The notes beneath the pieces are model-generated. The model did no database searches and was not told where the DNA came from. It was given only the letters and a program-made list of their open reading frames with translations. A DNA stretch of 64,000 nt from Waddliaceae bacterium (GTDB lineage Bacteria > Chlamydiota > Chlamydiia > Chlamydiales > JABHNK01): the NCBI GenBank assembly GCA_018694295.1, contig JABHNK010000053.1:833-64832 (forward strand). Reading direction: 5' to 3'. Both the position numbers and the translations under genes were made by a program. Below, piece by piece: positions 7,491 through 51,067 of this stretch. Within the stretch, counting starts at the first letter, position 1, and each line of letters starts with the position of its first letter.

Positions 7491-7569
7491 AAAACCCGCG
7501 CCAAAGGCGGTATCCGCCTCTGGACTCCCCAAGTAGGCGACAAAGTGCTACTGCACTTTGCTGCCAAAG

Positions 7570-8318: not shown

Positions 8319-8471
8319 TCTCATCTCCATCGTTTCCGATTGTGATGATGGCAGAGACAAAGCAAAAAGCGAAGACAGTTTCTGTCTTCGCTTTTTGCTT
8401 TGTCGTGGGTTTACAAAGGGATATTTCCCTTTGTCGCGGGAGGTGTGGAGGGCGCGGAGCTCCTCCACTAA
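8319..8471 (+). repeat. B-family structured repeat, copy B1 (four hairpins)
   Basis: Alignable to 29306..29450 and 52327..52476. Contains a perfect 23-bp stem (GACAAAGCAAAAAGCGAAGACAG/ttt/CTGTCTTCGCTTTTTGCTTTGTC). Its terminal CCACTAA supplies the stop of the MBL gene. Confidence 0.85.
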
Positions 8472-9277
8472 GAGGTGCACAGCACCTTTTGCGTGGTGTG
8501 TGGCAGCGCTCCACAAGCGTTGCTTATGCTGTTTTGGTATGCTATGGAGATATCGAAGGTAGAGGTTTTTTCGCCGAGGATTTCGTTGATGGTGGTGAGG
8601 GCCTTCTCGGGGGAGTTGCATTCGTCGGAAAGGTGCGCAAGGTGTACGTGTTTCAGGTCTTCGTGGTAGACGTCTAGGAGTAGGTTGCCACAGGCTTCGT
8701 TGGAGAGGTGTCCGCTACGGCTTAGGACGCGCTGTTTGTATATGAAAGGCCGCGGTGAGGCATGGACCATGTCAGGGTCGTGGTTCGCTTCGATATAAAG
8801 ATAGTCGCAGTTTTGCAGGCGGTTTTTTACTAACGAAGAAGCGAAGCCGAGGTCAGTACAGAACCCTATCTTGATGTCGTTGGTGGTTATCGTGAAGCCT
8901 ACAGGGTCGACGGTGTCGTGCTGTATGCTGAAGGGATGGATCTCAAGGTCGCGGAATTCGAAGGTGTCGCCGGTGGTGAATATCGTGAACTTCGCAACGG
9001 CGCTGAACATGTCGCAGATGCTTCGTGCCGTGTCGCTGTTGGCAAAAACAGGGATGCCCATGCGATATGCCATAATACGAAGGCCTTTGACATGGTCGCC
9101 GTGTTCGTGGGTGATAAGAATGGCATCGAGGTCGGCAATGTCGACGCCGATCTCAGCAAGACGAGCTTTCGTGGCTTTTCCGCTTAAGCCCGCATCGATG
9201 AGGATCTTAGAGTTCTCGGTGCCGAGGAATACGCTGTTGCCTTTAGAGCCCGATGCAAGGGGACAAAATCCTATCAT
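8468..9277 (-). CDS. MBL-fold metallo-hydrolase
   Basis: THEHGDH zinc motif. Start at MIGFCPLASGSKGNS (GGAAGG RBS) is preferred over the upstream ATG at 9328. Confidence 0.85.
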   Translation of the reverse strand: MIGFCPLASGSKGNSVFLGTENSKILIDAGLSGKATKARLAEIGVDIADLDAILITHEHGDHVKGLRIMAYRMGIPVFANSDTARSICDMFSAVAKFTIFTTGDTFEFRDLEIHPFSIQHDTVDPVGFTITTNDIKIGFCTDLGFASSLVKNRLQNCDYLYIEANHDPDMVHASPRPFIYKQRVLSRSGHLSNEACGNLLLDVYHEDLKHVHLAHLSDECNSPEKALTTINEILGEKTSTFDISIAYQNSISNACGALPHTTQKVLCTS

Positions 9278-9343
9278 AATACCTTCCGTTTTCAGTGATA
9301 TATAATGTATATGAAAGCCGAAAAACACGCCATATAAAAGTTA

Positions 9344-9386
9344 GGAATAGGACTTTTACCACAGAGCCACGGAGGACACAGAGAGG
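9344..9386 (+). repeat. A-family repeat, 5' fragment
   Basis: GGAATAGGACTTTTACCACAGAGCCACGGAGGACACAGAGAGG matches the first ~40 nt of the A copies. Confidence 0.6.
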
Positions 9387-15100: not shown

Positions 15101-15177
15101 CAATAGCTTTCTGGTACGCATATAGAGTGAAAACATTCTTCATGAAAAAATCAGCCGAGCCGAAATCGGCTGAGTAG
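12118..15177 (+). CDS. RND efflux transporter permease (AcrB/AcrD/AcrF family)
   Basis: 1019 aa. N-terminus MIKFFVKNPITT, 12-TM/2-loop architecture, C-terminal half repeats the N-terminal half. Confidence 0.93.
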   Translation: MIKFFVKNPITTIMFVSIFIVLGIVAAYNLRIERTPKIDFPIVTVSVIYPGATPLEMETSVINKIEDAIAELSEIKNIQSQSHDNFGYVFVEFLLSSDINIKFIEVKDKVEALLNDLPTEMMKPVIEKFDPLVESVMDLVVMSDTRDERALYEFVDKKLVDQFSSIKGVANIGLYGGEERQIHVDLDPFLMQKNYVDIRDVIASVKAKNKNIPGGLLEKGDYSLNLRFIGEFEDITEISEMLIVSRDGGAVALKDIATVYDGAKKVATRARHNGENSVGMSLKKVSDGNAIEIAKEVHKKLAKLEGIIPEDITITVSSDTTTFIVEETTDTEWAIILGIILTIVILYFFTGSAITTFIASIVIPISIVSAIFLVDVSGFTINFLTLLAIATALGTLIANAIVIIENCLKHVQKGEDPVDAVIAATKEVSVAIFASTGTNLVVFAPIAFMGGIVGQFMRSFGLTVIYVTIFSLIVSFTLTPMLCGLLLRKKTTTKKKRWNPLYLFVNITDRCVQWLQKEYHIIFKVMFRYHKTVVVAVVCILLSIKIVVPYIGSDFQPSSDEDMIVVSIEMPQGSTLERTLDVVKNVEDKVSKIAEVTSYLSYVGKSGVENGEVVVNLEPSEERERSDMDVIDELVPFVAMIPDANIAIKRGMSSMHGSDVSIDIYGDDIDELLAKSAMMKEYMEDSGFFRSVTSSYKTPKNEIRFIPDQKLLLESGLRGIEIGSVIRASIYGDDTNSYKEAGEDYTINVKLDDRYLEDFDDIEQITIISRKGLSPITELGDLVRRKAMPMIQHREGQRIIQLNGDLAKSTAGYVMTVLDEEFSAMTFDEGYGYRYVGNAEMQDESSREITKAFILAVIMTYMLLSAIMNSLIYPIPIALSVATSFSGVFYALFFMGETINIASMLGMVMLVGLVVNNSILLLDYTLIKIKEGTPVIDALWYGVEQRFKPIIMTSIAIILGVVPQLWSVMLTKSSMATVMIGGMIASVIFTFLFTPIAFWYAYRVKTFFMKKSAEPKSAE

Positions 15178-15373
15178 TTCGGAATAGGACTTTACCACGG
15201 AGATCACAGAGGAATCACAGAGTTTTCACGGAGAGCGCCCACTGCGCAGAGCGCGCAGCGGACGCACTTCTCATCATTGCCTGCGGCAGGCAATGATGAA
15301 CATAAATATTGTCATGTTCAGGTGATATATTCCCCAAATGTAAAATGTACTAAAATCTATTAAAGTAGTAGAT
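15177..15373 (+). repeat. A-family structured repeat, copy A1 (long form with palindrome tail)
   Basis: GTTCGGAATAGGAC..CACAGAGTTTTCACGGAGAGCGCCCACTGCGCAGAGCGCGCAGCG..TCATCATTGCCTG/cgg/CAGGCAATGATGA..AAATGTAAAATGTACTAAAATCTATTAAAGTAGTAGAT. Abuts the RND gene stop. Confidence 0.85.
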
Positions 15374-15483
15374 TTTTTAGGCGGTATATGTTTTTAAAAA
15401 ATAAAACAGCAATACTATGTAGTCTTTTTTTTATTGCATTAAAACTGGTTATAAGTTATAATATAGGCTTAAATTTAATTTAA

Positions 15484-15918: not shown

Positions 15919-16041
15919 GGTTCGGAATAGGATTTTACCACAGAGATCACAGAGGAACCACAGAGTTTTCACGGAGAGCGCCCACTGCGCAGAGCGCGCA
16001 GCGGACGCACTTCTCATCATTGTCTGTGGCAGACAATGATG
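15919..16041 (+). repeat. A-family repeat, copy A2 (short form)
   Basis: Same core as A1. The hairpin allele is CATCATTGTCTG/tgg/CAGACAATGATG. Confidence 0.85.
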
Positions 16042-16059
16042 TACTGACCTTGTACTACA

Positions 16060-17497: not shown

Positions 17498-17684
17498 GAG
17501 TTCGGAGCTCGGAATAGGATTTTACCACGGAGATCGCAGAGGACGCACAGAGTTTTTCACAGAGAGCGCCCACTGCGCAGAGCGCGCAGCGGGCACACTT
17601 CTCATCATTGCCTGTGGCAGGCAATGATGAATATAGATATTCCCCAAATGTCAAAATGTACTAAAATCTACTAAATTAGTAGAT
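17498..17684 (+). repeat. A-family repeat, copy A3 (long form with palindrome tail)
   Basis: Core as in A1. The tail ends in the perfect 19-bp palindrome ATCTACTAAATTAGTAGAT (17666..17684). Confidence 0.85.
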
Positions 17685-17726
17685 AATTGGGCGAAAATGC
17701 CCGCTTTTCATGCGAAATTCTTCGTA

Positions 17727-17767
17727 AAATGTGTCAAAACCTACTAATTTTAGTAAAATTAGTAGAT
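17727..17767 (+). repeat. 40-bp AAATGT(G)TCAAAA..TTAGTAGAT repeat (D3)
   Basis: Direct repeat of 17646..17684 and 18087..18125. Contains the palindrome TACTAATTTTAGTA and the half-site TTAGTAGAT. Confidence 0.7.
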
Positions 17768-17775
17768 TCTTTGAT

Positions 17776-18087
17776 ATGGTCAACATAAAGGTAATCACCG
17801 AGGCGATACAAGAGCTTAAAGATCAAATTCGTGAAGAGGCAGAAAAAAGCAAAAAATTTCGGCAAGGGCTGATGACCTTTGATCCCGAGTTGAATATTCG
17901 TCAATCGGCGTTACTTTTTCATGCTATGAAGCATCCTTCTGAGGTTTTTTCTATAAAGGCTCACCAGACGACAAATCATATATCTTATCAGACGGCAAGG
18001 ACAGACCTTCTAGAGCTGGCAGATAAGGGATATCTGAAACAAATCAAAAAAGGAAAAACCTTTTATTTCATATCTGCCGATAATTGA
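17776..18087 (+). CDS. Fic-family C-terminal winged-helix fragment (stand-alone wHTH or gene remnant)
   Basis: The NIRQSALLFHAMKH..ISYQTARTDLLELADKGYLKQIKKGKTFYF pattern is typical of the C-terminal DNA-binding-like domain of long Fic proteins. There is no Fic core. The GTG at 17731 lies inside a repeat, so I prefer the ATG at 17776. Confidence 0.5.
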   Translation: MVNIKVITEAIQELKDQIREEAEKSKKFRQGLMTFDPELNIRQSALLFHAMKHPSEVFSIKAHQTTNHISYQTARTDLLELADKGYLKQIKKGKTFYFISADN

Positions 18088-18125
18088 AATGTCAAAATCT
18101 ACTAAAAGCTACTAAATTAGTAGAT
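18087..18125 (+). repeat. 40-bp palindrome-bearing repeat (D4)
   Basis: AAATGTCAAAATCTACTAAAAGCTACTAAATTAGTAGAT. Its first base (18087) is the last base of the wHTH ORF stop codon. Lies 200 bp upstream of rhs. Confidence 0.7.
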
Positions 18126-18324
18126 AAATCGTCGCGGATATATGGTGACAAGACGACGAAATAAAAAGTAACATGTTTCATATTAAAAAAGAGTAATAAA
18201 ATTTTTATTACGCTCTTGAGTGCTTCTGAGCCGTTTTTTAAAAATATCGATCGACACTTTTTCCTTTATCATAATGTGATTAATAGCATAATCTCTGCTT
18301 CGCACAAAATAATCGGAGCTTGCT

Positions 18325-21300
18325 ATGAAATGGTTTATTTCTCTATTGTTCTTCTGTAATTGTTATGCTGCTGACCCCAATACAATTCTCGACAATGTCA
18401 ACATCTCCACTGGCTCCATTAACTACAAACAAACGGATCTCGTTGTCGATGCTATCGAACCCTTGATCATCGAACATTCATATCAAGGCACTGAAAAAGC
18501 TGATGTCTTCTTCCCCCACCTTAAAGCAAAGATAGGATTAAGCTCGAATAACATAGAATTTTTCGCTTGTGAACCTAGCGGTCTTGCCCTTTATTATCTA
18601 TGGAATCGCTCAGCATCGTTTGATTGCTGTCCACAAAATATCCCAGGCTTAACAAACACTTCAGAAAATAATCTTTCAGCACGGAATAATCCTCTCAATA
18701 ATTGCGCTACTTTTAATCCTGGTGGCCATTCAGTGCGCGTTACTTTGCCTGACGGAGGATTCCGAGCATATCGCCTAAACTCAGATTCCTGCACTGAGAG
18801 AGACCTTCATTTAACGATGGAAGTATTGCCAAACGGCAATCAGCGGCACTATGAATATGATGGACAGAGGCGTCTCGCCCGCGTTAGCACAAAAAACTGT
18901 TCGGGAGCGATAGAATATGCATGGGCGAAATTTTCGTATGATGGTGACGACGTCGTTGTCGATACTAGCGACGGTCAGCAAGCCACCTATCACTTTATAA
19001 AACACAAACACAAAGTTTTTTTAGATACCGTTTCTATCCCAGAACGGCCGAAAATACAGATATCTTATCACGAAGGTAAAGAAAGCCTTTTACCTCAAGA
19101 AATCTCTGTTGATGGTCAGCCTGTCTTTCATGTCGATTACAACCCCGGAGAAACACGCATTTCGTCGATGGAGCTTTTCATCGAAAAAGACAAACCCTCT
19201 GTACCATTCCGCACTTTCTCCTATCAAGATGGCAAGACCGAAAGTCGTGACGCTGCGGGGATGCTCACAACACACCATTTCGACAAAGATTCTCGCCTTG
19301 CTAAGGTCGATAATTATAAAGAAAACGACGAGCTTTTTTCTAGCCAGCATTTAACGTGGGAAGGCGCTAATCTTAAAGAAAAGGCGCTTTTTTCTGCCTC
19401 CGGGGATTGTATTTTCTCTCGTGAGTTTTCCTATGACGATCTTGGTAATGTTACCGAAGACATCTTTCATGACGATTCCTTAGATACCACATACAGCAAA
19501 AGTTTTTCTTATTCTTCCGATGGCAGAAACATGCTTCTCAAAGAAACCGAAGACTCCGGGCTTATATCAACTTTCGAATATCTTCAAGGAACCGATCTGA
19601 TTTCAAAGAAACTTATCGCCGGCCCCGAAGGCACCTTCCAGCGCTATTTTTTTGTATATGACGACAACAATCTATGCGTCGCTGAAATCTCCGACGACGG
19701 CGATGCCAAAGGCATCGATGATTTTAGTGGCGTCTCCGAGCGTAAAATATGTAGAATTTCCCGCTCGGAAGAAAACTTTCTACCCATAACCATCCAAGAA
19801 CTGTATTGGGATGGCAAAGAAATTCCTTTGTCGACGCGGAAAATTTCTTACAACACCGAAAATAAAGTTGTCCGTGAAGATGTTTACGATAGCGATGGCA
19901 TATTTTTATATTCACTCCATACGGATTATGACTCTCGAGGAAACATATCCAGGAAAACAGATCCGCTAGGGCGTGAGAGCTTATATGAATATGATGACTT
20001 TGGACGCTTGATCTTCGAACAAAAAGCAGGAAAACCATTTTCAAGACGCTACTACTACGATCTCGCTGGAAGGTGTATCTTCTCCGAAGAATATGATATG
20101 GAAGGAGACAGACGTGCGGTGTCGACGCATTACGACACTCAAGGGCGTCCGATTTCTATTACTGACGAACATGGTAATATAACAGAAAACACCTATGATG
20201 CTTTCGGTAATTGTATTGAAACAAGAGCCCCTGACATCCTTGATGAAAATGGAAACATATATTCTCCAGTCCTTAAAAATGCTTTCGACGAGCAGGGTAA
20301 CGCCATAAAGTTATATGGCGCTGATAACAGTGTTGTCGAGACGAGTTTCAATGCCCTCGGTGGCCCTATAACAATAAACCATCCTGATGGCACCGTCACC
20401 AGAAACACCTATCTTCCTAATGGTTTGCGAGAAAAAACTATTACTGACGATGGCTTGGAAACACGTTTTACCTATGATATCCTTCAACATGTTATCGCAC
20501 AAGAAACCTTCTCTCCCGAAGGCATTTGTCTTGTTCGTGAAAGCTGGGAATACAATACTTTTCACATGCTGTCGCATACAGACATCGAAGGACAAAAAAC
20601 AGTATACTCCTATGACCGTGCAGGAAGGAAGACAGCAGAACAGTGTGGAGATCATCGCTTACAATTCTCTTATGATTCCAGAGGATATCTACTGTCGACT
20701 TTTGATGTTTCTAGCGGAATAACGCATACACAGAGTACCGACTTGGCAGGAAGAAAGACCGAAGAATGGATAGAGCAGCCTAATGGCAACGTCGAAGACC
20801 ATACGATATTTCATAACACATATTATGATAAAATCTTCCGTGTCGTTCGTGGCGACGCTGTCGACGAAGTCGAATATGATGGACGCGGAAGGAAAGTCTT
20901 ACATATCGACCCTCTTGGCGCTAAAACAACGACCTCATACGAAGACAACTACTGCAACGGTTTGGGACAAAACGTTCTGCGTACGACAACGACGATGCCT
21001 AATGGTATGAGCCTCGTTGAAACCTATGACACCCTGTCTCGCGTAATAAAGATAGAAAAGAAAGACCTCGAAAAACAGGTTCTTCACAAAGAAGAGCTTT
21101 TTTACGACCGTTCTAGTAATATGGCTATGTCTGTCGTCACGATTTTCAAGGATGATGCGCCGCCTAGGACAATTTCTACGTGCTTTGTCTATGATAGTAT
21201 GCATAGGCTTATTTCTAAAACAGAGGCAGACCAAAGGACGACGTCATATTCTTATGATTCTATAGGGCGTGAAATCTTACGTAAGAAGCCTGACGGCGTA

Positions 21301-23436
21301 GAGATTATGTCTTCATACGACTATCTTGGTAGGGTGACGGAACTACGTTCGTCTGATGGTTCGGTACAATATCGTTATTCCTATGACGAAGGCATGCAGC
21401 CGACGCGTATAGAAGATATTGTTGCAGGAACAACGCATCATTGTTCTTACGACAAAGAGGGAAATCTCATCTTCGAAGCAAACGGATGCGGTCTTGTCCT
21501 TCAGTGGACGTACGATGCTGTGGGGCGTCCATTATCGCTAAAACTTCCCGACGATACCCTCATAGAGTATTCTTATGAAGGCTCTCATCTGTCGGAGGTC
21601 TCACGGCCGACATATTCCCACAGATATCTTTCTTTCAACGAACATGGCCACATCGCCGAAGAGCAGCTTATCGGTGATATGGGCGCTAAGAGCACTTCAT
21701 ATGACATTCTTGACCGCCCGTTCTTACAACGCTCGTCATCTCATGAAATTTCACAGACATTCAACCTCAACGGTGAAATCGAAACGGTTACTTCTTCGTT
21801 GATAGGTTTCAAGGACTATGAACACAACCTTCTTTCGTTTCTTGTTAAGGAAGACGAAGAAGAGTATCAATACGATTCTATTGGGAACCCTGCGGAGATC
21901 CCTGTCGACGACCTCAACCAGCTTCAGAGGGAGGATCTTTCCTATGATTTGAACGGGAACCTCCTTACGAGAGAAGACCTGTCTTTCAGCTACGACGCTT
22001 TAGACCGCCTTGCCACGATAGCAGGTCCTAATGATACCATAACATATACTTACGACCCTTTTGGTCGTATGCAGTCTAAGACAACGAGCGAAGGGGTGAT
22101 ATATTTCATCTGCGATCACGATTCGGAGATCGGCGCTGTCGATGCAGAAGGCACTATCATACAACTTCGCGTCCTTGGTGATGGCATTAACAGTGAAAGT
22201 GGTGCTGCTGTTGCTCTTGAGCTTCGTGGAGAGGTTTATGTTCCAGTCCATGATCTTAGAGGAAACTTAATCGCTCTGTCCTCTCTCGATGAAAAAGATG
22301 TAGTGCAGACGTATGATATGAATGCTTATGGGCAATGTGATATATCCGACCCACTGTCGCCGTGGCGTTTTTCTTCCAAACGCCATGAAGAGGGAGGCCT
22401 AGTTTGTTTCAGACATCGTTTCTATGATACTACTCTAAAGCGCTGGCTTACTCCAGACCCTGCAGGGAATATTGATGGCTCAAACCGCTATGGTTATGTC
22501 CTCAGCAATCCCGTCAACCGCCTCGACCAGTGGGGGCTTTATGAAACTCCTATTTGTATTGAATCTCCATATGTTGGAGCCGCAAGCTTCCGAGTCACTT
22601 TTTCATTCGATATGAGCTCTATGATGAATGCAGGTACATTTGAAGAGCAGGTTAGTTCTTTAGGCCTTGTTATGCAACATCTCATAGTCAACAATGATGA
22701 TGTACACTACCTGCGTAGCAGCGCTACAGAAATTGCTCAAGCAAAGTCATATGAACTACAAAAGTTTTTCTCTGCGGCCTTGGAATTCTCAAATGAAGGC
22801 GAGATTCTCTTGACGTCTTTAACCAACGGTATTGGTAATAAACCACACGATTTTACATCATCGATTAAAAGTGTAAATAATATTTTTCATAACGACGTGT
22901 TCATGATGGGGCTCTTCAACGCAACAGAAGGTCTTAAAACGGATCTAAACAGGGTGTTCGTTGAAGGTCAGGGATATGATACTCCGATAGTCATTATGAT
23001 GAGAACGGAAATTCTTTTTAATGCACGTCTGTGTGAGAGAGTGGGAGATAACACCTATTTTTTAAAAATCCTCCACAGCGAAGCAGGCTTGATATACTGC
23101 AATGCTTTTAATGGGATGACTCTCGAACAGCAAAATCTTGTCAAAAAACATGCTTTGGTTGCTGCTTTTGGCCCTGCCGAGCCAGTTCCCAGATCTTCCG
23201 CTTATGAAGCGATAAACATATATTCTGAGAAAGACAATATTACAGGGGGCGCCGGTAGAAACAAAGATCCTAATGACTATGATATTCGTTTCGTTGAATG
23301 TATTTCATCGTGGTCTGAACATAATTTGCTTGGCTATGCAGATCATGCGTATCTTGGGTCGACATATCAAGAAGCTACTAGTGATATGATAAAACATTTT
23401 GATGCTAAATATAAGTTTTATCGCTATAATAAATAA
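18325..23436 (+). CDS. Rhs/YD-repeat polymorphic toxin with Sec signal peptide and novel C-terminal domain
   Basis: 1703 aa. Signal peptide MKWFISLLFFCNCYA. Dozens of YD repeats (YDDLGN, YDSRGN, YDDFGR, YDTQGR, YDPFGR and others). Core terminus RYGYVLSNPVNRLDQWGL at about aa 1405, then a 298-aa tail. Confidence 0.9.
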   Translation: MKWFISLLFFCNCYAADPNTILDNVNISTGSINYKQTDLVVDAIEPLIIEHSYQGTEKADVFFPHLKAKIGLSSNNIEFFACEPSGLALYYLWNRSASFDCCPQNIPGLTNTSENNLSARNNPLNNCATFNPGGHSVRVTLPDGGFRAYRLNSDSCTERDLHLTMEVLPNGNQRHYEYDGQRRLARVSTKNCSGAIEYAWAKFSYDGDDVVVDTSDGQQATYHFIKHKHKVFLDTVSIPERPKIQISYHEGKESLLPQEISVDGQPVFHVDYNPGETRISSMELFIEKDKPSVPFRTFSYQDGKTESRDAAGMLTTHHFDKDSRLAKVDNYKENDELFSSQHLTWEGANLKEKALFSASGDCIFSREFSYDDLGNVTEDIFHDDSLDTTYSKSFSYSSDGRNMLLKETEDSGLISTFEYLQGTDLISKKLIAGPEGTFQRYFFVYDDNNLCVAEISDDGDAKGIDDFSGVSERKICRISRSEENFLPITIQELYWDGKEIPLSTRKISYNTENKVVREDVYDSDGIFLYSLHTDYDSRGNISRKTDPLGRESLYEYDDFGRLIFEQKAGKPFSRRYYYDLAGRCIFSEEYDMEGDRRAVSTHYDTQGRPISITDEHGNITENTYDAFGNCIETRAPDILDENGNIYSPVLKNAFDEQGNAIKLYGADNSVVETSFNALGGPITINHPDGTVTRNTYLPNGLREKTITDDGLETRFTYDILQHVIAQETFSPEGICLVRESWEYNTFHMLSHTDIEGQKTVYSYDRAGRKTAEQCGDHRLQFSYDSRGYLLSTFDVSSGITHTQSTDLAGRKTEEWIEQPNGNVEDHTIFHNTYYDKIFRVVRGDAVDEVEYDGRGRKVLHIDPLGAKTTTSYEDNYCNGLGQNVLRTTTTMPNGMSLVETYDTLSRVIKIEKKDLEKQVLHKEELFYDRSSNMAMSVVTIFKDDAPPRTISTCFVYDSMHRLISKTEADQRTTSYSYDSIGREILRKKPDGVEIMSSYDYLGRVTELRSSDGSVQYRYSYDEGMQPTRIEDIVAGTTHHCSYDKEGNLIFEANGCGLVLQWTYDAVGRPLSLKLPDDTLIEYSYEGSHLSEVSRPTYSHRYLSFNEHGHIAEEQLIGDMGAKSTSYDILDRPFLQRSSSHEISQTFNLNGEIETVTSSLIGFKDYEHNLLSFLVKEDEEEYQYDSIGNPAEIPVDDLNQLQREDLSYDLNGNLLTREDLSFSYDALDRLATIAGPNDTITYTYDPFGRMQSKTTSEGVIYFICDHDSEIGAVDAEGTIIQLRVLGDGINSESGAAVALELRGEVYVPVHDLRGNLIALSSLDEKDVVQTYDMNAYGQCDISDPLSPWRFSSKRHEEGGLVCFRHRFYDTTLKRWLTPDPAGNIDGSNRYGYVLSNPVNRLDQWGLYETPICIESPYVGAASFRVTFSFDMSSMMNAGTFEEQVSSLGLVMQHLIVNNDDVHYLRSSATEIAQAKSYELQKFFSAALEFSNEGEILLTSLTNGIGNKPHDFTSSIKSVNNIFHNDVFMMGLFNATEGLKTDLNRVFVEGQGYDTPIVIMMRTEILFNARLCERVGDNTYFLKILHSEAGLIYCNAFNGMTLEQQNLVKKHALVAAFGPAEPVPRSSAYEAINIYSEKDNITGGAGRNKDPNDYDIRFVECISSWSEHNLLGYADHAYLGSTYQEATSDMIKHFDAKYKFYRYNK

Positions 23437-23449
23437 AAAAGGTTTTTCT

Positions 23450-24088
23450 ATGAAATATTTACTGCTTTCCTTATGTTGTTCTTTATTATTTTTAACGCTC
23501 TATGCGAGTGATAATTCCTATTTTGGTCGTGATCCCGAGCATTATAAAGAAGGTAATAAGCTCATCAACGAGATGTTTAGAGAGTATGCAGAGCGTGTAT
23601 GCAAGCAATATGATTTGAAGTGCGAAGGCGACATGGGGGGCTTCCCGGGGCAGATTCAATCTCTCGGCGGAGTATTTGGCGTCAAGCGGCTACTTGCTGT
23701 GGATGAATTGCGCATTCTCATCCTTAAACTTCTTGCAGACTTTCAAGATACTATAAACAGAAATGAAAAAATCAGACCATTTCTCGCAGAATATCCATTT
23801 GCTGCCGATCGCATCACTATTATGCTAAGAATTTACGATGGAAATAAAAGACCGTCACCTGATGAAATTTCTCTTGCTTTTTCATCTCGAGATCATATTT
23901 CATATTGCTATTCTGATCCAAAGAAATCTATTTTCGAGGATAAAAAAATCCAAGAACCATTCGAAGAGGCATGTGAAAAGGCTGGCATCGATGTTGCGAC
24001 GATATCCCCGATATATTCATTATATGATGATACAGGCCGCTTTCTTAAAACGGAAAAAAATGATAACCCCACTACCAAAAAGAAATAA
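23450..24088 (+). CDS. secreted paralogue 1 (candidate Rhs immunity protein)
   Basis: 212 aa. MKYLLLSLCCSLLFLTLYA signal peptide. 13 nt after the rhs stop. Paralogous to the next two ORFs. Confidence 0.7.
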   Translation: MKYLLLSLCCSLLFLTLYASDNSYFGRDPEHYKEGNKLINEMFREYAERVCKQYDLKCEGDMGGFPGQIQSLGGVFGVKRLLAVDELRILILKLLADFQDTINRNEKIRPFLAEYPFAADRITIMLRIYDGNKRPSPDEISLAFSSRDHISYCYSDPKKSIFEDKKIQEPFEEACEKAGIDVATISPIYSLYDDTGRFLKTEKNDNPTTKKK

Positions 24089-24097
24089 GACGAAATC

Positions 24098-24736
24098 ATG
24101 AAATATTTACTGTTGTTCCTGTGTTTATTCTTTTCGTCCCATATGCTTTATGCAAACGATGAATATTATCATTTTCGCACACCAGATAATCGTCAGGAGA
24201 GCGATAAAGTTATCAACGAAATTTATGAGGAATGTGTAGAACGCCTATGCGAAAAATATCATTTACTGTATCTAGCAGACCTATATCACTTTCCTGAAAA
24301 AATAGACTTCTTAGGCGGGGCATTCGGCATGAAGCGCATGATTTCCGTTGATGAATTGCGGCCTCTTGTACTAGCGTTACTTGCAGATTTTCAAGAGGCG
24401 ATAAACAACAACGAAAAAATCAGGCCGCTCCTCGTTGAATATCCATTTCCAGCGGATCGTATCACTATTATGATAGGTCTTTGTGACGGGGACAAACTAC
24501 CTCCTCATGATGAAGTTTCCAATGCTACTTCAGAGAAGGGTTTTCTTTGCTACAGGTTTAGCGATTTAATCAAAATAGTTCAAGGGAAGGAAGAAATCAA
24601 AGAATCCCTTGAAGAGGCGTGTGAAAAGGCTGGTATAGACCCTGCGACCATATCTCCGATATATTCGCTATATGATGATACAGGCCGCTTTCTCAAAAGT
24701 GAAAAAAACGACAATCCCACTACCCAAAAGGAATAA
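24098..24736 (+). CDS. secreted paralogue 2 (candidate Rhs immunity protein)
   Basis: 212 aa, colinear with paralogue 1. The shared C-terminus is EEACEKAGID.ATISPIYSLYDDTGRFLK.EKNDNPTT. Confidence 0.7.
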   Translation: MKYLLLFLCLFFSSHMLYANDEYYHFRTPDNRQESDKVINEIYEECVERLCEKYHLLYLADLYHFPEKIDFLGGAFGMKRMISVDELRPLVLALLADFQEAINNNEKIRPLLVEYPFPADRITIMIGLCDGDKLPPHDEVSNATSEKGFLCYRFSDLIKIVQGKEEIKESLEEACEKAGIDPATISPIYSLYDDTGRFLKSEKNDNPTTQKE

Positions 24737-24745
24737 GGTGAACTT

Positions 24746-25462
24746 ATGAAATATTTACTGTTATGTCTACCACTTTTATTTTCAACGCTCTATGCCGATA
24801 AATATGCTGATTATGAAGCCTTTAGTAAGAAGGGTGATGCCGCTATGAAGGAAATCGAGGAAGCGTTTGCCAGAGCAGATGGTGATATTGAAGCTTTTTG
24901 TAAGGAGGGCATAGGGGCTATGGATGAGATGCACAAAGAGTTTGAAGAAATAGAAGAGAGAGCAAAAGCTTATTACAAAGATGCCGACATAGATATTAAT
25001 GAATTCTACAAAAAATTTACAGAGCATGTTTATAAAAAATATGAAATGAAATCCGAGAGCAATATAGAAGAATATTTTAAAGAAACGGGCAAGCTTGGCT
25101 CATACTTTAGAACGAACCGCCTATTTACAGTAGAGGAATTGAGGATGCTTATTCTCAATCTTATTGCAGATTTTAAAGATGCTAATGAAGCGTTCAAACA
25201 ATATCCTGGGAAACCCACATATTTTGCGGAGTTTATTTCTTTTCTCATAATCTTTAACGATGATGAGAATGCTTCTCGTTATGATTGTGTTCCATTAGTT
25301 TTTCTGTGCAACGGCAATATCATGTACTTTGATTTAGAAGAAGATGACGAAATAAAAAGTGAAGAATTTCTTGAAGAGGCTTGTGAAAAAGCGAATATTG
25401 ATGTTGCGACGATCTTTCCTATATCTCCGCAAGATGTTGTTTTGCCAGAGCCATTAAAATGA
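24746..25462 (+). CDS. secreted paralogue 3 (divergent, with acidic coiled-coil insertion)
   Basis: 238 aa with the same signal peptide start. Shares the VEELR.LILNLIADF and EEACEKANIDVATI blocks. Confidence 0.65.
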   Translation: MKYLLLCLPLLFSTLYADKYADYEAFSKKGDAAMKEIEEAFARADGDIEAFCKEGIGAMDEMHKEFEEIEERAKAYYKDADIDINEFYKKFTEHVYKKYEMKSESNIEEYFKETGKLGSYFRTNRLFTVEELRMLILNLIADFKDANEAFKQYPGKPTYFAEFISFLIIFNDDENASRYDCVPLVFLCNGNIMYFDLEEDDEIKSEEFLEEACEKANIDVATIFPISPQDVVLPEPLK

Positions 25463-25465
25463 TAT

Positions 25466-25644
25466 GGTCAGGCCGAACATTCAGACATTCGGGGAGCTGA
25501 TAATCCAGACACGACAGTATCCCTGTTCGTCATTGCCTGCCACAGGCAATGGCGAGAAGCGTGTTCGCTGCGCGCTCTGCGCAGTGGGCACTCTCTGTGT
25601 AACTCTGTGTCTCTCCGCTCCCTCTGTGGTAAAAATCCTATTCC
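25466..25644 (-). repeat. A-family repeat, copy A4 (inverted)
   Basis: Reverse complement of the A core (..GCGCTCTGCGCAGTGGGCACTCTC..GTGGTAAAAATCCTATTCC). Begins 3 nt after the paralogue 3 stop. Confidence 0.85.
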
Positions 25645-26332: not shown

Positions 26333-26505
26333 GGGCAAGGCCGAACATTCGGGGAGCTGATAACCCAGACACGACAGTATCCCTGTTCATTATTGTCTGC
26401 CACAGACAATGATGAGAAGCGTGTTCGCTGCGCGCTCTGCGCAGTGGGCACTCTCCGTGAAAACTCTGTGATCTCTGTGTCCTCTGTGGTAAAAAATCCT
26501 ACTCC
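26333..26505 (-). repeat. A-family repeat, copy A5 (inverted)
   Basis: Near-identical to A4. Its terminal AATCCTACTCC contains the ftsK stop codon (CTA at 26499..26501). Confidence 0.85.
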
Positions 26506-29040: not shown

Positions 29041-29121
29041 AATAATATGTCACTATACATTCGCAATAAAAACAATGCCAGAAAAAAGGAGAGATAATGC
29101 CCGATGACGGGACAAAAGAAG

Positions 29122-29196
<75 letters not shown>

Positions 29197-29305: not shown

Positions 29306-29450
29306 ATCATCGCCATCGTTTCGATGGTGATGACGGCGAAGGCAAAGCAAAAAATACAGGCGTCTCGCCTGTGGGTTTTGCTTTGCCGCGGGTTTACAAA
29401 GGGCGCGCGCCCTTTGTCGCGGGTGGCGGGGCGCGGAGCTCCGCCACTAA
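29306..29450 (+). repeat. B-family structured repeat, copy B2
   Basis: Four hairpins (CATCGCCATCG/CGATGGTGATG; GGCAAAGCAAAA..TTTTGCTTTGCC; ACAAAGGGCGC/GCGCCCTTTGT; GTGGCGG..CCGCCAC). The terminal CCACTAA supplies the comEC stop. Confidence 0.85.
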
Positions 29451-31018
29451 ATAAATTGCCATTGTTGTTTTGTTGTTTCGGTGGTGTCGTAGGAGATTAT
29501 GGCGATGATAGCGATGAGGCATAGGTATACGGTGAAGAGCGTTGGTGAGATCGCCTGTGTCCTTATTGCGAAGTTCATCGTCGCTGGCACTGCCACGGCG
29601 AAGTCTATGATTGCGGCGGTGTAGACGTCTATTGCCGAGAAGAACATCGCGGCGACGGCGGGGATGACGAGGTCGATGAGCATGGTGACAAGTAGTGCTG
29701 CTATTGCGATGCTTACCAGGAACGGAAAGAATATATTGAAAAGGATTCCTAGCAGCGGGAATTTATGGAAATATAGTAGCATCATCGGCGCCGAGACAAT
29801 ATGTACGGCGATTGTTACGGCGCACGCCTTTTTTAGGAACGCGACGACGAGATACCCCCACTGCTCATACCATGGAAGCTTCTTCATGGCACCTAGCGGC
29901 CTTGTTGCTGAGATATTTCCGAGGAGAGCTTCGATAGGAGGGTATAGCGATACTATCGCTATCGTTGCCAGGAAGCTGAACTGGAATCCCAGGTTCATAC
30001 ATAGCAGGGGACTTACCGACAGTATCGCTAGCATCGCGATGCCTATGGTATTTAGGGCATATGTCGGCCTGCCGACGAGGACGCCGATTATTGTTATCAC
30101 TGCAGAAAGCCATGCTCGTTGTATCGAAGGCGAGCATCCTATGAAGACGAAGTAGCTGCTGAGAAGCGCTATTAGTATATACGACGACACGCGCAAAGAG
30201 AAAAAAGCTTTAAGCATGAGGGCGAGAAGCGCCGCTATTATCGCGAAGTGGAAGCCTGATATCGCCATGATATGCTGGAGGCCTAGACGCCCCAGCTGAA
30301 ACAGCGTGCTTCTGTCGTGGTATTCTCCAGTGGCAAGGCCCGCAAGGAAAGAAGCGCTACGATGGCGCGAAAGCTTTCTTGTGAGGTATGACGTTACAGC
30401 ACCTTTTGCGCGAAGACGGTATTCCGCCATACTCCAGCTGTGTGGGACGGGATACCATTTTCCTTGAAGGTCGGGCTTTAGTCGATATACCATGCCTTCG
30501 GTTGCGGAGATCGTGGCGTCGAGGATATATCTCCTGTCGGCAGAAAGGCGCTGCTTTCCTTTGCTGATATACATGATATAAGGGACATTCCTGGCGATGA
30601 TGTTGTCATCAGCGACGAAAGAACGCACAGCGCCACGATATACCCACGCCTCGCCGAAGTGGCTCTTCGACAGCGTGATAGAAGATATGTCGATATGTGC
30701 CTTGCCGGTGACACCGTCGTCGTCGACGACAGGGAAATCATATACGATAAAGGCTACGAAGAATGAAACGATGCCAAGAATGGCAGCAAACATAATACGT
30801 GTGCGGTTCTCCTTTCCTACATCGAAAATTTTCTTGGAGAAATATGGGGCGATGATAAGGATGATAGGGACGACGAGCGCCCACTGCCATGAAAAGGCGC
30901 TGCGGAACCCGAGAAACACTCCTATGCCATACAACAACGCCGGATGCTTTGCTAGGAACGAAGAATATCTCCTGCAACATTCCGACAGAGAAGGGAAAAA
31001 CCGTGACGATGAAAACAT
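29447..31018 (-). CDS. comEC: ComEC/Rec2 family DNA internalisation channel protein
   Basis: 523-aa polytopic membrane protein with competence-domain-like topology and sequence character. Confidence 0.8.
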   Translation of the reverse strand: MFSSSRFFPSLSECCRRYSSFLAKHPALLYGIGVFLGFRSAFSWQWALVVPIILIIAPYFSKKIFDVGKENRTRIMFAAILGIVSFFVAFIVYDFPVVDDDGVTGKAHIDISSITLSKSHFGEAWVYRGAVRSFVADDNIIARNVPYIMYISKGKQRLSADRRYILDATISATEGMVYRLKPDLQGKWYPVPHSWSMAEYRLRAKGAVTSYLTRKLSRHRSASFLAGLATGEYHDRSTLFQLGRLGLQHIMAISGFHFAIIAALLALMLKAFFSLRVSSYILIALLSSYFVFIGCSPSIQRAWLSAVITIIGVLVGRPTYALNTIGIAMLAILSVSPLLCMNLGFQFSFLATIAIVSLYPPIEALLGNISATRPLGAMKKLPWYEQWGYLVVAFLKKACAVTIAVHIVSAPMMLLYFHKFPLLGILFNIFFPFLVSIAIAALLVTMLIDLVIPAVAAMFFSAIDVYTAAIIDFAVAVPATMNFAIRTQAISPTLFTVYLCLIAIIAIISYDTTETTKQQWQFI

Positions 31019-31069
31019 AAAAACGACGATATTAGAAGAGCGTCTTTGTTGGCAATGTGAAAAATATTA

Positions 31070-32206
31070 TTAGGAAGGAACTGGTGGAGCAGAATCTGGC
31101 CGGGGTTGTTGTTGTGTGACATCAAGCGACGCGCTACGTTTTCTTTTATGTCGTTTTCCGGCTCGTCTTGTTGGCGATTGTTCTGGTGTTAGACTTGTTT
31201 TTTCCAGCTCAAAAAATTTTAGATTAGAAAGATCCTCAACTTCTTCGACACTGACTTCATAATCTGTATATTTAGCTCCACTTCTTAATTCTTCGTTGGG
31301 AATAAGGAATGCTTTAGTTTCTTTAACTCTGCTACCTTCTGTAACGCTATAAACTTTAAAAAAATGTGTGGGGATGGCGGGCCCATCGTCCCCCAAGGTT
31401 TTATGAAGATGTAAGGTGTCTCCGTGAATTTCCGTTTTTTTATGAAAGAGCGTTCCTGTGTAGATATGGATCACATTATTTAGTGTGAGCTCTTTGGATA
31501 TTGAATTTTCGAGATCGTGCCAAACCCCAGTATTGAGAGATAGAACTTGAGGAGCGATATTCAACGTTGAAAATGTTTCAATGTATCTTTCTTCTGTACA
31601 TTTATTATGGCTGGCTTTCGCGAGGTGTCCAAGACTAAGAAGAGGGCTTTCTCTAATTTTTTCAACGATGCTGCTACGAGAATCGGTTAACTCTTTGGCG
31701 TCATAAAATATGGTCGGGGCTTCTTTACGGTTTTTTACCTCTCCATGGGTTGATGACCAAGTTAATCTTTCGCCTACACAGACAGGGACTCTGTAGCGGT
31801 TGTCGTAAACCACACGATACCCCGTTTTTTGGAAAACATGTAGAAAGCTTGGTAGAGAATATCTAATCTCAGGGAATCTTTCATTTAAGACGTGCGGAAA
31901 AGAGCTGCTTTGGGAAGATTGTACTGGCGTTAGAGATGATAAGCCATGGGAAACATCCTCTTTTTTTTCTGGAGAGGGAAATTTTGTAGCGGTAGTGCTT
32001 ATAACTATAGCACGTGATGTCATAATCCTACGTAAAGTAAAAGCGGTGTATTCATGTAAATTAGCTTCCGCTATATATGAAAGAGTTGTATCAAGAGTGG
32101 CTACTGTTTCTTGATCTTCTCGAGAAAGTGCAATGATTTTAGAATTGGTTTCTAGTAAAAGAAAATCTGGGCTAGAAATTGTTCCGTCGATTGTTGAGAA
32201 TGACAT
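31070..32206 (-). CDS. DNA/RNA non-specific endonuclease (EndA/NucA/EndoG family) with basic C-terminal tail
   Basis: SLGHLAKASH..LNIAPQVLSLNTGVWHDLEN aligns with Serratia nuclease DRGHQAPLA..SNITPQKSDLNQGAWARLED. Ends 52 nt upstream of comEC on the same strand. Confidence 0.8.
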   Translation of the reverse strand: MSFSTIDGTISSPDFLLLETNSKIIALSREDQETVATLDTTLSYIAEANLHEYTAFTLRRIMTSRAIVISTTATKFPSPEKKEDVSHGLSSLTPVQSSQSSSFPHVLNERFPEIRYSLPSFLHVFQKTGYRVVYDNRYRVPVCVGERLTWSSTHGEVKNRKEAPTIFYDAKELTDSRSSIVEKIRESPLLSLGHLAKASHNKCTEERYIETFSTLNIAPQVLSLNTGVWHDLENSISKELTLNNVIHIYTGTLFHKKTEIHGDTLHLHKTLGDDGPAIPTHFFKVYSVTEGSRVKETKAFLIPNEELRSGAKYTDYEVSVEEVEDLSNLKFFELEKTSLTPEQSPTRRAGKRHKRKRSASLDVTQQQPRPDSAPPVPS

Positions 32207-38183: not shown

Positions 38184-39599
38184 ATGGGACGCAGAAAAAA
38201 AAAAGAAGCCATTATTGATATCGTCGCTTTTTCCGGCAAAGGAAATGGCTTGGGATATTATATCAATGTCCGCAACGAAGAATGTCCTGTAGAAGTCCGC
38301 GGCGCTGTTCCTGGCGACGTCGTCAAGGTTGTCTTGGCTCGTAGGGTAAAGAGGCGATATATCTCCAGTGTAGAAGAATTTATCACGATGTCACCGGAAA
38401 GAGAGCCTCTACGATGTAAACACGCAGGCGTGTGCGGCGGCTGTAGCATGCAGCATGTGCCATATCATCGACAGACAAACCACAAAGAATCCGCCGTCCG
38501 TGAGCTTTTTTCTGGATATTCTGATACCGCAGTTTTCCATGACATCATTCCATGTGAAGATCCATGGTATTACCGTAATAGGATGGACTTCTCGTTTTCA
38601 CAGGACGCCGCAGGAGAGAAATTCGCCGGACTTATGATGCCTATGGCGAAGGCGCGCGTTGTCGATATCGAAGAATGCTATATCACAAGCAGATGGTGTG
38701 TCGAGGCCCTAGACGCCGTACGGCAGTGGTGGAAAAACTCCGACCTAGAGGCATATTACCACCCAAAAGATAAAGGAACGCTTCGAGAAGTGATGTTCCG
38801 CGAAGGAAAAAATACCGGCGACAGGATGGCTGTCCTTACCGTCTCAGGGAACCCCGACTATGCCCTCGTTCATGATGATATCGCCGCCTTCGTCGAGGCT
38901 ATACGCGCCTCTTGCGAAGATGAAAACCACAAAGTCAGCATCTTCATACGCATACAACAGCTCGTTGCTGGAAAACCAACAGAATTCTATGAGATGCACC
39001 TATATGGCCCTGAATACGTCCGTGAGATCCTTGACGTCGGAGACAGGGGAGCGATAACGGTTAACATCAGCCCAGCAGCGTTTTTTCAGCCAAACACCAT
39101 CCAGACCGAGAAACTGTATGCCCTAGCCCTAGAACACGCCGATATCACCGAAGAAGACGTCGTATACGACCTATACTGCGGCACTGGAACGATAGGGCTA
39201 TGTGTGTCGAAAGCTGCCAAAAAAGTCGTCGGCATAGAACTTTCCCCTGAAGCCGTTCTCGATGCTCGTGAGAATATCAAAGACAATAACATAGAAAATA
39301 TGGAAGTGATACAAGGCGATGTCGGAACAGCCTTGGCAGACGTCGACGACAATGTCGATGTCGTCATCGTAGACCCTCCGCGTTCAGGCCTCGATGAAGA
39401 TGCCATCGCCAATATCTTACGGCTACGCCCAAAAAAAATCGTCTACATCTCATGCAATCCAAAAACACAGGCAAAGAACGTCGCCGATATCGTTGCAGAA
39501 GGGTATTCATTGACGTCAATACAGCCCATAGACCAGTTCCCCCATACACCACATATTGAGAATATAGTAATAGCGGACAGGAAAAACATTGATCATTGA
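38184..39599 (+). CDS. rlmD: 23S rRNA (uracil-5)-methyltransferase, RlmD/RumA family
   Basis: TRAM-like N-terminus, Fe-S cysteines CKHAGVCGGC, SAM fold DLYCGTGTIG, catalytic YISCNP. Confidence 0.88.
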   Translation: MGRRKKKEAIIDIVAFSGKGNGLGYYINVRNEECPVEVRGAVPGDVVKVVLARRVKRRYISSVEEFITMSPEREPLRCKHAGVCGGCSMQHVPYHRQTNHKESAVRELFSGYSDTAVFHDIIPCEDPWYYRNRMDFSFSQDAAGEKFAGLMMPMAKARVVDIEECYITSRWCVEALDAVRQWWKNSDLEAYYHPKDKGTLREVMFREGKNTGDRMAVLTVSGNPDYALVHDDIAAFVEAIRASCEDENHKVSIFIRIQQLVAGKPTEFYEMHLYGPEYVREILDVGDRGAITVNISPAAFFQPNTIQTEKLYALALEHADITEEDVVYDLYCGTGTIGLCVSKAAKKVVGIELSPEAVLDARENIKDNNIENMEVIQGDVGTALADVDDNVDVVIVDPPRSGLDEDAIANILRLRPKKIVYISCNPKTQAKNVADIVAEGYSLTSIQPIDQFPHTPHIENIVIADRKNIDH

Positions 39600-39635
39600 T
39601 CATTGATCATTGAGCATTGAGCATTGATCATTGTG
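39587..39635. repeat. heptanucleotide tandem array (CATTGAK)x7
   Basis: CATTGAT x3, CATTGAG x2, CATTGAT, CATTGTG. Contains the stop codons of both convergent genes. Confidence 0.9.
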
Positions 39636-40551
39636 CGTTGGCGCGGCGTTTTTTTGGAGTCTTGCGACGCGTTCTCTTCTTGATGCCTTGTCGACCATTG
39701 GCGATCTCGTGTAGATTCTGTATGGCGATGAATGCCGAAGGGTCTTCACGATATACCACCTTCTTAAGCTCGGCGAGCTGAAGACGCTCGACAACGACGT
39801 ATATTATCTCACGGTTTTTATTAGAAAAACCACCCCTACCATACATTATAGTAAGACCGAGGCCAAGTTCGTGGATTAGAGCGTCGGAGATGACTTTTAC
39901 CTTGCTAGAGATGATGTTTACCGACTTCGTCTCCTCAAGGCCTACAATGACGGTGTCCATCACCTTCATAGCAACGAAATAGGTCATAAGAGATAAAAAA
40001 GGAGGACGCCAGCTGCGGAAGACGATTCCTGCCAATGCGAAGATAAGGAGGTTTATGGCGAAGACAACCTGTCCTACAGTGAAACCTTTTCGGCTGTTAG
40101 CAATGATTCCTAAGATCTCAGTGCCGTCGAGACACCCACCCATCCTGATGATAAGGCCGAGGCCAGCGCCGAGAGAGACGCCACCGAGGATTACGATCTC
40201 AAGGGCGTCGCCTCCAACAAAAGGCGCTTTGCCATGGAGAAAGAAAAGAAAACCCGCGAACATCAATACCGCTGCGATCATATGTATGACGAAGGTCTTG
40301 CTGATGTTCTTATATGCGAGATATAAAAAGGGCATATTTAGAAGAAGAAGAAAATATGGGATGAATTGCTGTCCGAAAAGCTTGCCGAAAATCATGGCAA
40401 TACCAACGATACCGCCGTCAATAAGATCGTTGGGAACGAATATTATCTCTATAGATATCGCCGCTAATAAAGCCCCAAGAGCTGTAAAAATTACAGAATA
40501 AAAATATGTCGTAAACGACTTCCCGGTAGTGATACGCGATTTTGTTGCCAT
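39628..40551 (-). CDS. YitT family membrane protein (DUF2179)
   Basis: Five or six TM helices followed by a soluble C-terminal domain, as in the YitT family. Confidence 0.8.
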   Translation of the reverse strand: MATKSRITTGKSFTTYFYSVIFTALGALLAAISIEIIFVPNDLIDGGIVGIAMIFGKLFGQQFIPYFLLLLNMPFLYLAYKNISKTFVIHMIAAVLMFAGFLFFLHGKAPFVGGDALEIVILGGVSLGAGLGLIIRMGGCLDGTEILGIIANSRKGFTVGQVVFAINLLIFALAGIVFRSWRPPFLSLMTYFVAMKVMDTVIVGLEETKSVNIISSKVKVISDALIHELGLGLTIMYGRGGFSNKNREIIYVVVERLQLAELKKVVYREDPSAFIAIQNLHEIANGRQGIKKRTRRKTPKKRRANAQ

Positions 40552-44537: not shown

Positions 44538-44610
44538 ATAGCGGATAGGAATAGCGTATAGCGGATAGGGATAGTTTTGTCTCCGAACTCCGAACTCTGA
44601 ACTCTGAACT
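44538..44610. repeat. mosaic short-repeat block (ATAGCGG/ATAGGA units plus CTCCGAA/CTCTGAA heptamers)
   Basis: ATAGCGGATAGGAATAGCGTATAGCGGATAGGGATAG..CTCCGAACTCCGAACTCTGAACTCTGAACT. The same modules occur at A-family 5' ends. Confidence 0.75.
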
Positions 44611-47326: not shown

Positions 47327-47548
47327 ATTATAAAGGGCGAAATGGTAAACTCCCTTTAACAACTGACCTTATGCGCCACTTTCACTTTATTGGCTTGCTA
47401 CAAGGGCGATCTGCTGCGTATTTCTCCTCGCCCAGCTCTATTTGAGCTTGGCTCGTCGAAATATTTGCATCTCATCCCTTTCGCTATGCCACTAAAGCAA
47501 AATTGGCGCGTAACATCAGTTAGTAAAAAATAATAATTAGAGGGATCT

Positions 47549-49645: not shown

Positions 49646-49647
49646 GT

Positions 49648-49680
49648 AATGTCAAGGGTGCGCGGAGCGCCCTTGACATT
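49648..49680. terminator. bidirectional hairpin between convergent metG and the hydrolase gene
   Basis: AATGTCAAGGGTGCGC/gga/GCGCCCTTGACATT. The stem is near perfect. Confidence 0.7.
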
Positions 49681-49684
49681 GCTG

Positions 49685-51045: not shown

Positions 51046-51067
51046 TCTCATCGCCATCGTTTCGATG
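51046..51067 (+). repeat. B-family repeat, 5' hairpin fragment (B4)
   Basis: TCTCATCGCCATCGTTTCGATG equals the first 22 nt of the B copies. Abuts the Fic stop codon. Confidence 0.7.

Follow-up and report, generated by a model that had tools for sequence, protein, structure and literature searches.

The genome analysed here, that of an uncultured marine chlamydia, carries structured repeats that are set on stop codons with single-base precision. One of them, directly behind comEC, is a copy of an element of ~150 bp (hereafter B), and its four hairpins are all kept in each of the three full copies (B1, B2 and B3) found in the window, i.e. the whole stretch of 64,000 nucleotides that was analysed. 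Our preferred reading, to which we assign a probability of about 40%, is that B would be a once-mobile modular repeat, acting today as a two-way transcriptional insulator or terminator between tandem genes. In its favour we count the occurrence at unrelated loci, the double changes in the stems, the duplication of a module, the anatomy of hairpin 2, the junctions with the neighbouring genes, the absence of the element behind comEC in the nearest relative, the assembly breaks at B3, an exact 29-mer and a strand bias. Judged by its sequence, B is a new family within a known kind, the dispersed intergenic palindromic repeats, and the element type itself is ordinary. The unusual parts are the stop-codon anchoring and an antisense-strand wobble bias that is common to a second repeat family. 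To our knowledge, environmental and marine chlamydiae have been seen in metagenomes only, with a non-coding repertoire that is essentially undescribed.

The window encodes the chlamydial histone Hc1, and the best relatives of its ComEC are found in Parachlamydiaceae and other Chlamydiota (at most 45% identity). The same sequence is present in marine MAGs as well as in assemblies from Saanich Inlet and Hawaii. ComEC consists here of the Competence (channel) domain only, and its gene follows one for an EndA-like non-specific nuclease; a B copy is also found at a separate MBL-fold gene elsewhere in the window.

Three full copies and one fragment had been reported in an initial annotation of the window, and their positions were confirmed by reading the sequence and by BLAST (Table 1). 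Pairwise identity is 82% for B2 and B3 (152 nt), 77% for B1 and B2 (151 nt) and 75% for B1 and B3 (157 nt), with E values between 1e-20 and 1e-34. B2 and B3 have an exact 29-mer in common, and the fragment, a 20-22 nt piece of hairpin 1, matches B2 at 20/20 bases. As also described before, all full copies are in + orientation and lie directly 3' of minus-strand genes (coding for an MBL-fold hydrolase, ComEC and RecD2); the three loci are unrelated. A covariance model built from B1-B3 and run on the window scores these copies, on which it was trained, at 145-163 bits (E 7e-34 to 2e-38).

Table 1. Positions of the B copies, their hairpins, relatives and neighbours, and of other repeats. Numbers refer to the window unless a contig handle precedes them.
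Feature	Position	Strand	Description
B2 (focal full copy)	29306-29450	+	between comEC stop and tRNA-His; covariance model 163.4 bits
B2 hairpin 1	29307-29333	+	TCATCGCCATCG-TTT-CGATGGTGATGA; 12 bp including one G.T pair
B2 hairpin 2	29341-29387	+	GGCAAAGCAAAA..CAGGCG-TCT-CGCCTG..TTTTGCTTTGCC; bidirectional, intrinsic-terminator-like
B2 hairpin 3	29388-29420	+	core ACAAAGGG..CCCTTTGT at 29396-29417; flanked by two direct CGCGGG tags
B2 hairpin 4	29422-29448	+	GTGGCGGGGC-GCGGA-GCTCCGCCAC
comEC	29447-32206	-	
comEC TAG stop	29447-29449	-	TA from the gene plus the element's first G
tRNA-His	29121-29195	-	next gene beyond B2
B1 (full copy)	8319-8471	+	adjoins 3' end of MBL-fold hydrolase gene; covariance model 145 bits
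MBL-fold hydrolase gene	8468-9328	-	
B3 (full copy)	52327-52476	+	0-3 nt past the recD2 TAA stop
Solo hairpin 1 piece	51046-51067	+	left arm, loop and 5 nt of right arm; abuts Fic gene stop
div1 (B' subtype)	7462-7600	-	27 bits, E 3.7e-5; between convergent rnhB gene and 82-aa ORF
div2	L066:17830-17975		just outside the window, between recF and smpB
Solo hairpin-4 look-alike	49646-49682	+	13.5 bits, E 0.07; GC-GCGGA-GC top; between convergent metG and hydrolase genes
A family (~125-165 nt)	15177-15301, 15920-16044, 17508-17632	+	
A family (~125-165 nt)	25485-25644, 26345-26505	-	
A family, partial copy	9339-9383		
A family, outside copies	L062:7793-7850, L062:8420-8475		
C repeat	47340-47530; L066:17617-17790		long irregular hairpin of ~170 nt; in gmk/rpoZ-like and recF/smpB spacers

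Compared with dinucleotide shuffles, B1-B3 fold with z-scores of -7.4 to -11.3 on both strands, and 0/200 shuffles are equally stable. The RNAalifold consensus contains 57 pairs, nine of which have changes on both sides. In a model-fitted alignment 96.5% of the cells pair and 8 pairs have changed on both sides where shuffles give 3.0 +/- 1.3 (0/500 reach 8), though such covariation statistics have little power when resting on three sequences. Sliding the partner by 1-3 columns lets the pairing fall to 40-58%.

The double changes are located in hairpins 2, 3 and 4. The outer stem of hairpin 2 is GGCAAAGC/GCTTTGCC in B2 and GACAAAGC/GCTTTGTC in B1 and B3, and in B1 this hairpin has a perfect 23-bp stem. 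Hairpin 3 has the stem ACAAAGGG/CCCTTTGT in B1 and B2 (GCAAGGG/CCCTTGC in B3), while hairpin 4 is formed by GTGGAGG/CCTCCAC in B1 and has the left arm GTGGCGG in B2 and B3. The stems quoted in the initial annotation agree with these, except that the right arm of hairpin 4 in B3 had been given as CCGCCAC; it is actually CCGCCAT, which results in a terminal G.T pair. Compensatory changes had furthermore been claimed for each of the four hairpins. They hold for hairpins 2-4 (8-9 pairs) but not for hairpin 1, which has two mismatches in B1 and is merely one pair longer in B3.

Hairpins 2 and 3 share the form RCAAAG..CTTTGYCGCGGG, and because both end in CTTTGYCGCGGG we regard them as tandem paralogous (duplicated) modules. 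On the G-rich strand, which is the + strand, each hairpin is followed by a tag of the CG(G)CGGG type. The top GC-GCGGA-GC of hairpin 4 does not vary between B1-B3, the diverged copy div1 and the solo hairpin-4 look-alike. Hairpin 1 is not related to hairpin 4 (local alignment score of 5 in either orientation).

Two diverged relatives, div1 and div2, have GGAGTCCAGAGG..CCTTTGGCGSGGG..GGGGC in common. The final 6-7 codons of rnhB and its stop codon lie in hairpin 4 of div1; div2 is not located beside a stop codon and is without the TTA junction described below. In a MAFFT alignment of the B and div copies hairpin 3 is out of register. The B and div copies adjoin the DNA-transaction genes comEC, recD2, rnhB and recF, an association that was noticed post hoc.

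The B copies begin 0-4 nt after the stop codon, in constant orientation relative to the gene. Read in the sense of the gene (with a slash at the junction), the transitions are CTCTTA/GTGGAGG for B1, ATTTA/GTGGCGG for B2, TAATTA/ATGGCGG for B3 and CATTTA/AGGGGC for div1, so that TTA/R is found at 4/4 stop-abutting junctions. The first base of the element completes the TAG stop of comEC and likewise that of the MBL gene. Since the native C-terminus of ComEC (..FI) lines up with those of its homologues (..F[ILMV]), the TTA is gene sequence and the TAG is completed by the element. RecD2 matches its family model to 713/717 residues, and its TAA stop is probably native; the TTA at B3 is a second one, beyond this stop.

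We infer that this precision is what insertion 3' of TTA, combined with survival where the stop is kept, would give. B would thus have been inserted as a unit of ~150 bp at its present sites and not have evolved there. Insertion 3' of TTA with a purine as first base would keep a TAG or TAA stop and leave the protein intact, and B copies would survive at stop codons in a gene-dense genome for this very reason. The mechanism might be likened to, though it is not demonstrably, a single-strand process of the IS200/IS605 or REP type. In the nearest relative (45% ComEC identity) synteny is conserved up to comEC, which is not followed by a B element; no empty site was found. Several independent metagenome assemblies (public contigs L005, L009, L010 and L011, covering window 52327-52476) end at B3 or within it, which would fit a repeat or a strong hairpin that disrupts assembly, and B3 is base-for-base identical in 8 public assemblies.

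Insertion without any host role would make B a purely selfish single-strand-DNA element (an IS200/IS605-type PATE, or REP/RAYT-like) whose hairpins are recognised on one strand. Palindrome-associated elements (PATEs) derived from IS200/IS605 have neither inverted termini nor target duplications, insert 3' of a short target, and carry subterminal hairpins and a strand-specific structure. B resembles them in several respects. Inverted ends are lacking: aligned with the reverse-complemented last 35 nt, the first 35 nt score 5 (shuffled mean 5.0-5.5), as opposed to what is found in MITEs. No target-site duplication is seen either, as the longest words that the flanks have in common measure 4-5 nt and differ between copies. 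The hairpins are subterminal, on the gene-sense strand a TTA stands before hairpin 4 in 4/4 stop-abutting copies (B1, B2, B3 and div1), the irregularities are strand-specific, and the differences between copies are compensated, as expected with selected master copies. However, the end hairpins 1 and 4 are unrelated where PATEs have similar ones, and the target-bearing strand is the one with the A.C mismatches and not the better-folding one. Moreover, no transposase, recombinase, integrase, Y1, TnpA, TnpB or RAYT gene was found in the ~90 kb sampled (the window plus ~26 kb of flanking sequence), and B3 is the same in all assemblies containing it, with no polymorphic site found. All in all we regard a purely selfish element as decidedly improbable.

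Searches for further members were carried out at several levels. An Rfam search, as recommended by the initial annotation, shows that only three tRNAs in the whole window reach the gathering score (Rfam 15), and permissive scans of B2 and B3 yield generic hairpin matches of 9-23 bits against gathering scores of 45-124. Plasmid and phage BLAST with B gave no match. B belongs to none of the described families. With the pattern TGCTTTG-N35-60-GGGCGCGGAGCTCC, genome contigs returned 3 unrelated matches (Paenibacillus, Pyrinomonadaceae and Acidobacteria). A metagenome-contig pattern that left out the known flanks returned 0. A looser pattern yielded 18 matches, none of which is B according to the covariance model (best 21 bits), and two viral-contig patterns gave matches at chance level only. 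A six-frame translation of the three copies (concatenated) found nothing at E<=1 among 5.8 billion proteins. The ~26 kb beyond the window edges contain no full copy and one diverged relative; a GxxExxY paralogue search for other contigs of the organism retrieved one cluster from it.

The initial annotation had likened B to REP/BIME or RPE-like elements. The resemblance is justified insofar as B is a dispersed, structured, intergenic repeat, but membership in the REP/BIME, MITE or RPE classes is contradicted by tags, inverted ends, duplications and reading frame. Protein coding was rejected given that indels shift the frames between copies. An in-frame insertion with a conserved peptide, as in the palindromic elements of Rickettsia (RPEs), is likewise not seen: no frame runs through all copies, and the six frames match no predicted protein. 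A GTAG tag is absent, with CGCGGG found beside hairpins 2, 3 and 4; CGTC stands beside hairpin 1 in B2 and B3 only, partly within the stem. At the ends of B the attC core sites RYYYAAC and GTTRRRY are absent, and the region has no integrase. A role as DNA uptake sequence was discarded as well, there being no over-represented 8-12-mers besides the Hc1 repeats.

REP/BIME elements are dispersed GC-rich imperfect palindromes, located mostly downstream of genes in the spacers of tandem or convergent ORFs; unpaired tags adjoin their stems, and they have been associated with termination and with the stabilisation of mRNA (PMC3733652). A REP is a palindrome of 20-40 nt that has GTAG or CGTC as an unpaired tag on one side (PMC3733652). 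B is likewise dispersed, GC-rich, 3' of genes and tagged next to its stems, but it consists of four different hairpins in a fixed direct order instead of inverted REP pairs, its tag is CGCGGG, no RAYT gene accompanies it in the sampled 90 kb, and its density there is low. The BOX repeats of Streptococcus pneumoniae and the enterobacterial RU/ERIC-type repeats are modular intergenic repeats of ~100-200 bp with stable multi-stem folds, able to influence neighbouring genes (PMC2229807, PMC3184786). From these B differs in being unrelated in sequence, in having no terminal inverted repeats and in its exact anchoring to stop codons. QMITE2 of Coxiella burnetii, also an intracellular bacterium, is 150-190 bp long, lies mainly in 3' untranslated or intergenic regions, includes a REP-like palindrome, and has been proposed to affect neighbouring genes and to give rise to sRNAs (PMC5896051). 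It has direct repeats of 7-11 nt and a GTAG REP targeted by IS1111, whereas B has neither.

A possible present-day function of B is suggested by hairpin 2. Its inner stem is GC-rich and lies between an A-rich arm, CAAAGCAAAA, and a T-rich arm, TTTTGCTTTG; both arms are identical in all copies. A terminator scan flags hairpin 2 of B2 on both strands and that of B3 on the + strand; in B1 the T-tract is absorbed by the 23-bp stem of the perfect palindrome. Ordinary terminators of this genome (at 38105, 59426 and 61337) have the same form of A-tract, stem and T-tract, which bears out the terminator module that had been among the initial suggestions. No further terminator-like hairpins are seen in the three B-bearing intergenic regions, and B fills the position where other genes carry a simple terminator. 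The A-tract, GC-rich stem and T-tract are those of bidirectional Rho-independent terminators, with the difference that B embeds hairpin 2 in a repeated unit of 150 bp with three more conserved hairpins.

According to our preferred reading, transcripts of comEC, recD2 or the MBL gene would terminate at hairpin 2, having passed hairpins 4 and 3; RNA coming the opposite way, from the AT-rich promoter region of the next gene, would terminate there once hairpin 1 has been transcribed. Counted against this reading are the T-tract, which is interrupted (TTTTGCTTTG) and in B3 lies 5 nt off the stem in the gene-sense direction, and the restriction to three full copies in ~90 kb together with the failed searches for more. 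The lack of inverted ends, duplication and transposase, the off-stop location of div2 and the absence of a predicted + strand promoter upstream of the copies count against it as well.

The same anatomy would also suit a host-evolved 3'-UTR module, in which hairpins 4 and 3 together with the terminator hairpin 2 act in the sense mRNA only, to end transcripts or to stabilise them against 3' exonucleases. The start within 0-4 nt of the stop codon, the constant orientation, the GC-rich hairpins and the simple-terminator position all agree with such a module. On the other hand, hairpin 1 would be left over beyond the terminator, and div2 is not located 3' of a stop codon. Transition-type non-Watson-Crick pairs provide a cheap, sequence-only probe of which strand of a repeat is under selection, and here they contradict the default annotation as a "3'-UTR hairpin".

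With helices defined strand-neutrally, the G-rich strand of B1-B3, the solo hairpin, div1 and div2 has 14 G.T against 2 A.C cells (~11 independent positions against 2). This strand is antisense to the abutting gene for B1-B3, and for div1 it is antisense to rnhB. The same holds for the A family, an unrelated repeat in the same window (Table 1), whose sense strand has 0 G.T against 13 A.C cells (5 distinct positions) with copies in both genomic orientations. When all hairpins of the window are pooled the numbers are 23 against 19, and because there is no such bias window-wide we consider the asymmetry to be intrinsic to the elements. Its direction is opposite to what would be expected from selection on hairpins in the upstream mRNA or from transcription-linked deamination.

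For the sense-strand module these pairs mean A.C cells that are true mismatches on the mRNA strand, with the G.U pairs on the opposite one, and the A family shows the same reversal. A 3'-UTR stabiliser, as had been proposed initially, predicts G.U on the mRNA-sense strand; the finding of almost all G.T on the antisense strand speaks against it, and we consider the module in the sense mRNA unlikely. Two other candidates were tried and dropped. Replication-strand mutation bias as the cause is at odds with both the window-wide count of 23 against 19 and the A copies, which retain their bias in both orientations. Strand choice by minimum free energy alone also fails: the + strand is 5-24 kcal/mol more stable, yet z-scores are similar on both strands, because G-rich shuffles fold better too.

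Pairing is best preserved on the G-rich strand, antisense to the abutting gene; under the preferred reading of B as an insulator, selection would act on that strand, be it through RNA made from it or through a single-stranded DNA stage. One may go further and suppose that the G-rich strand is itself transcribed: B would be a small RNA gene, or else a divergent or antisense transcript starting in the AT-rich spacer would carry it as its structured 5' part. Starting with hairpin 1, such a transcript would either stop at hairpin 2 or continue as antisense RNA into the 3' end of the neighbouring gene. In favour of this strand is the asymmetry of the wobble pairs, which is seen in B, div1, div2 and the solo hairpin and, on the equivalent strand, in the A family. 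Both families start there with a TCATC..GATGA hairpin, hairpin 2 has a T-tract in that direction, and the abutting genes mostly concern DNA transactions (comEC, recD2 and rnhB, with recF nearby). Even so, we find this reading doubtful: none of the B copies has a predicted sigma-70-like promoter upstream on the + strand, the AT-rich hexamers are unaligned between copies, hairpins 3 and 4 would fall past the terminator, Rfam holds no relative, and the association with these genes is post hoc.

The fragment 51046-51067 gives rise to a different idea, in which hairpin 1 is a site-specific recombination site, B a landing pad and the Fic gene a cassette integrated at hairpin 1, leaving the full hairpin in B3 and a half-site in the fragment. 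Hairpin 1 of B3 and the fragment indeed form direct repeats around 167 nt plus the Fic gene (51068-52159), with the break inside the right arm; the interval of 48-52 kb, in which this gene lies, has a GC fraction of 0.424, the second-lowest among the 4-kb bins, and A-family copies also bracket single genes. Nonetheless this is a single case with no integrase nearby and no Fic-less allele found, and the same layout would arise if each gene had its own 3' element, one of which decayed. Integration at hairpin 1 therefore seems highly improbable to us, even though the Fic-domain gene may as such be an acquired cassette.

A broader proposal would unite both families, with B and independently A as stop-anchored elements whose working strand is the antisense one. 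After insertion behind a TTA, with their own first purine restoring the stop codon, they would produce or terminate structured RNAs, antisense or divergent, at gene 3' ends (here mostly for DNA uptake and repair: comEC, recD2, rnhB and recF), or else serve as strand-specific single-stranded DNA sites that also capture genes such as Fic. We consider this rather improbable. If the antisense-strand reading were true, these repeats would represent compact mobile insulators or generators of antisense RNA; if false, they would be one more REP/BIME-like family, which also breaks metagenomic assemblies.

The A family has a head consisting of GTTCGGAATAGGATTTTACCACAGAG and CACAGAG repeats, which equals the inverted termini around a GxxExxY/PDDEXK_3 gene just outside the window. 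Its terminal hairpin TTCTCATCATTGCCTG..CAGGCAATGATGA resembles hairpin 1 of B. A copies mostly lie 0-17 nt past stop codons in sense orientation, and they bracket single genes (ORF128; carbonic anhydrase).

A third repeat, C, has no match in Rfam even at permissive thresholds. The 231-nt stretch that holds it folds at -72 kcal/mol, and C may be an unannotated structured RNA in two copies.

Several smaller repeats were seen in the same region. Four copies of a motif of ~48 nt with the palindrome TCTACTAAATTAGTAGA (15335-15382, 17646-17693, 17729-17776 and 18087-18134) surround small ORFs that immediately precede an RHS-repeat gene (18325-23436), and look like operator or regulatory sites. This gene is followed (23399-25462) by three tandem paralogous ORFs with a period of 648 nt and no Pfam match, which may be an immunity gene array. 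Finally, short tandem heptamer and 11-mer repeats occur at gene ends and in upstream regions (39587-39640, L065:11370-11460 and 44540-44610), with the units CATTGAT/CATTGAG; GACCAGT, TATCAGT and GATCAAT; and TAGCGGATAGG and CTCCGAA.
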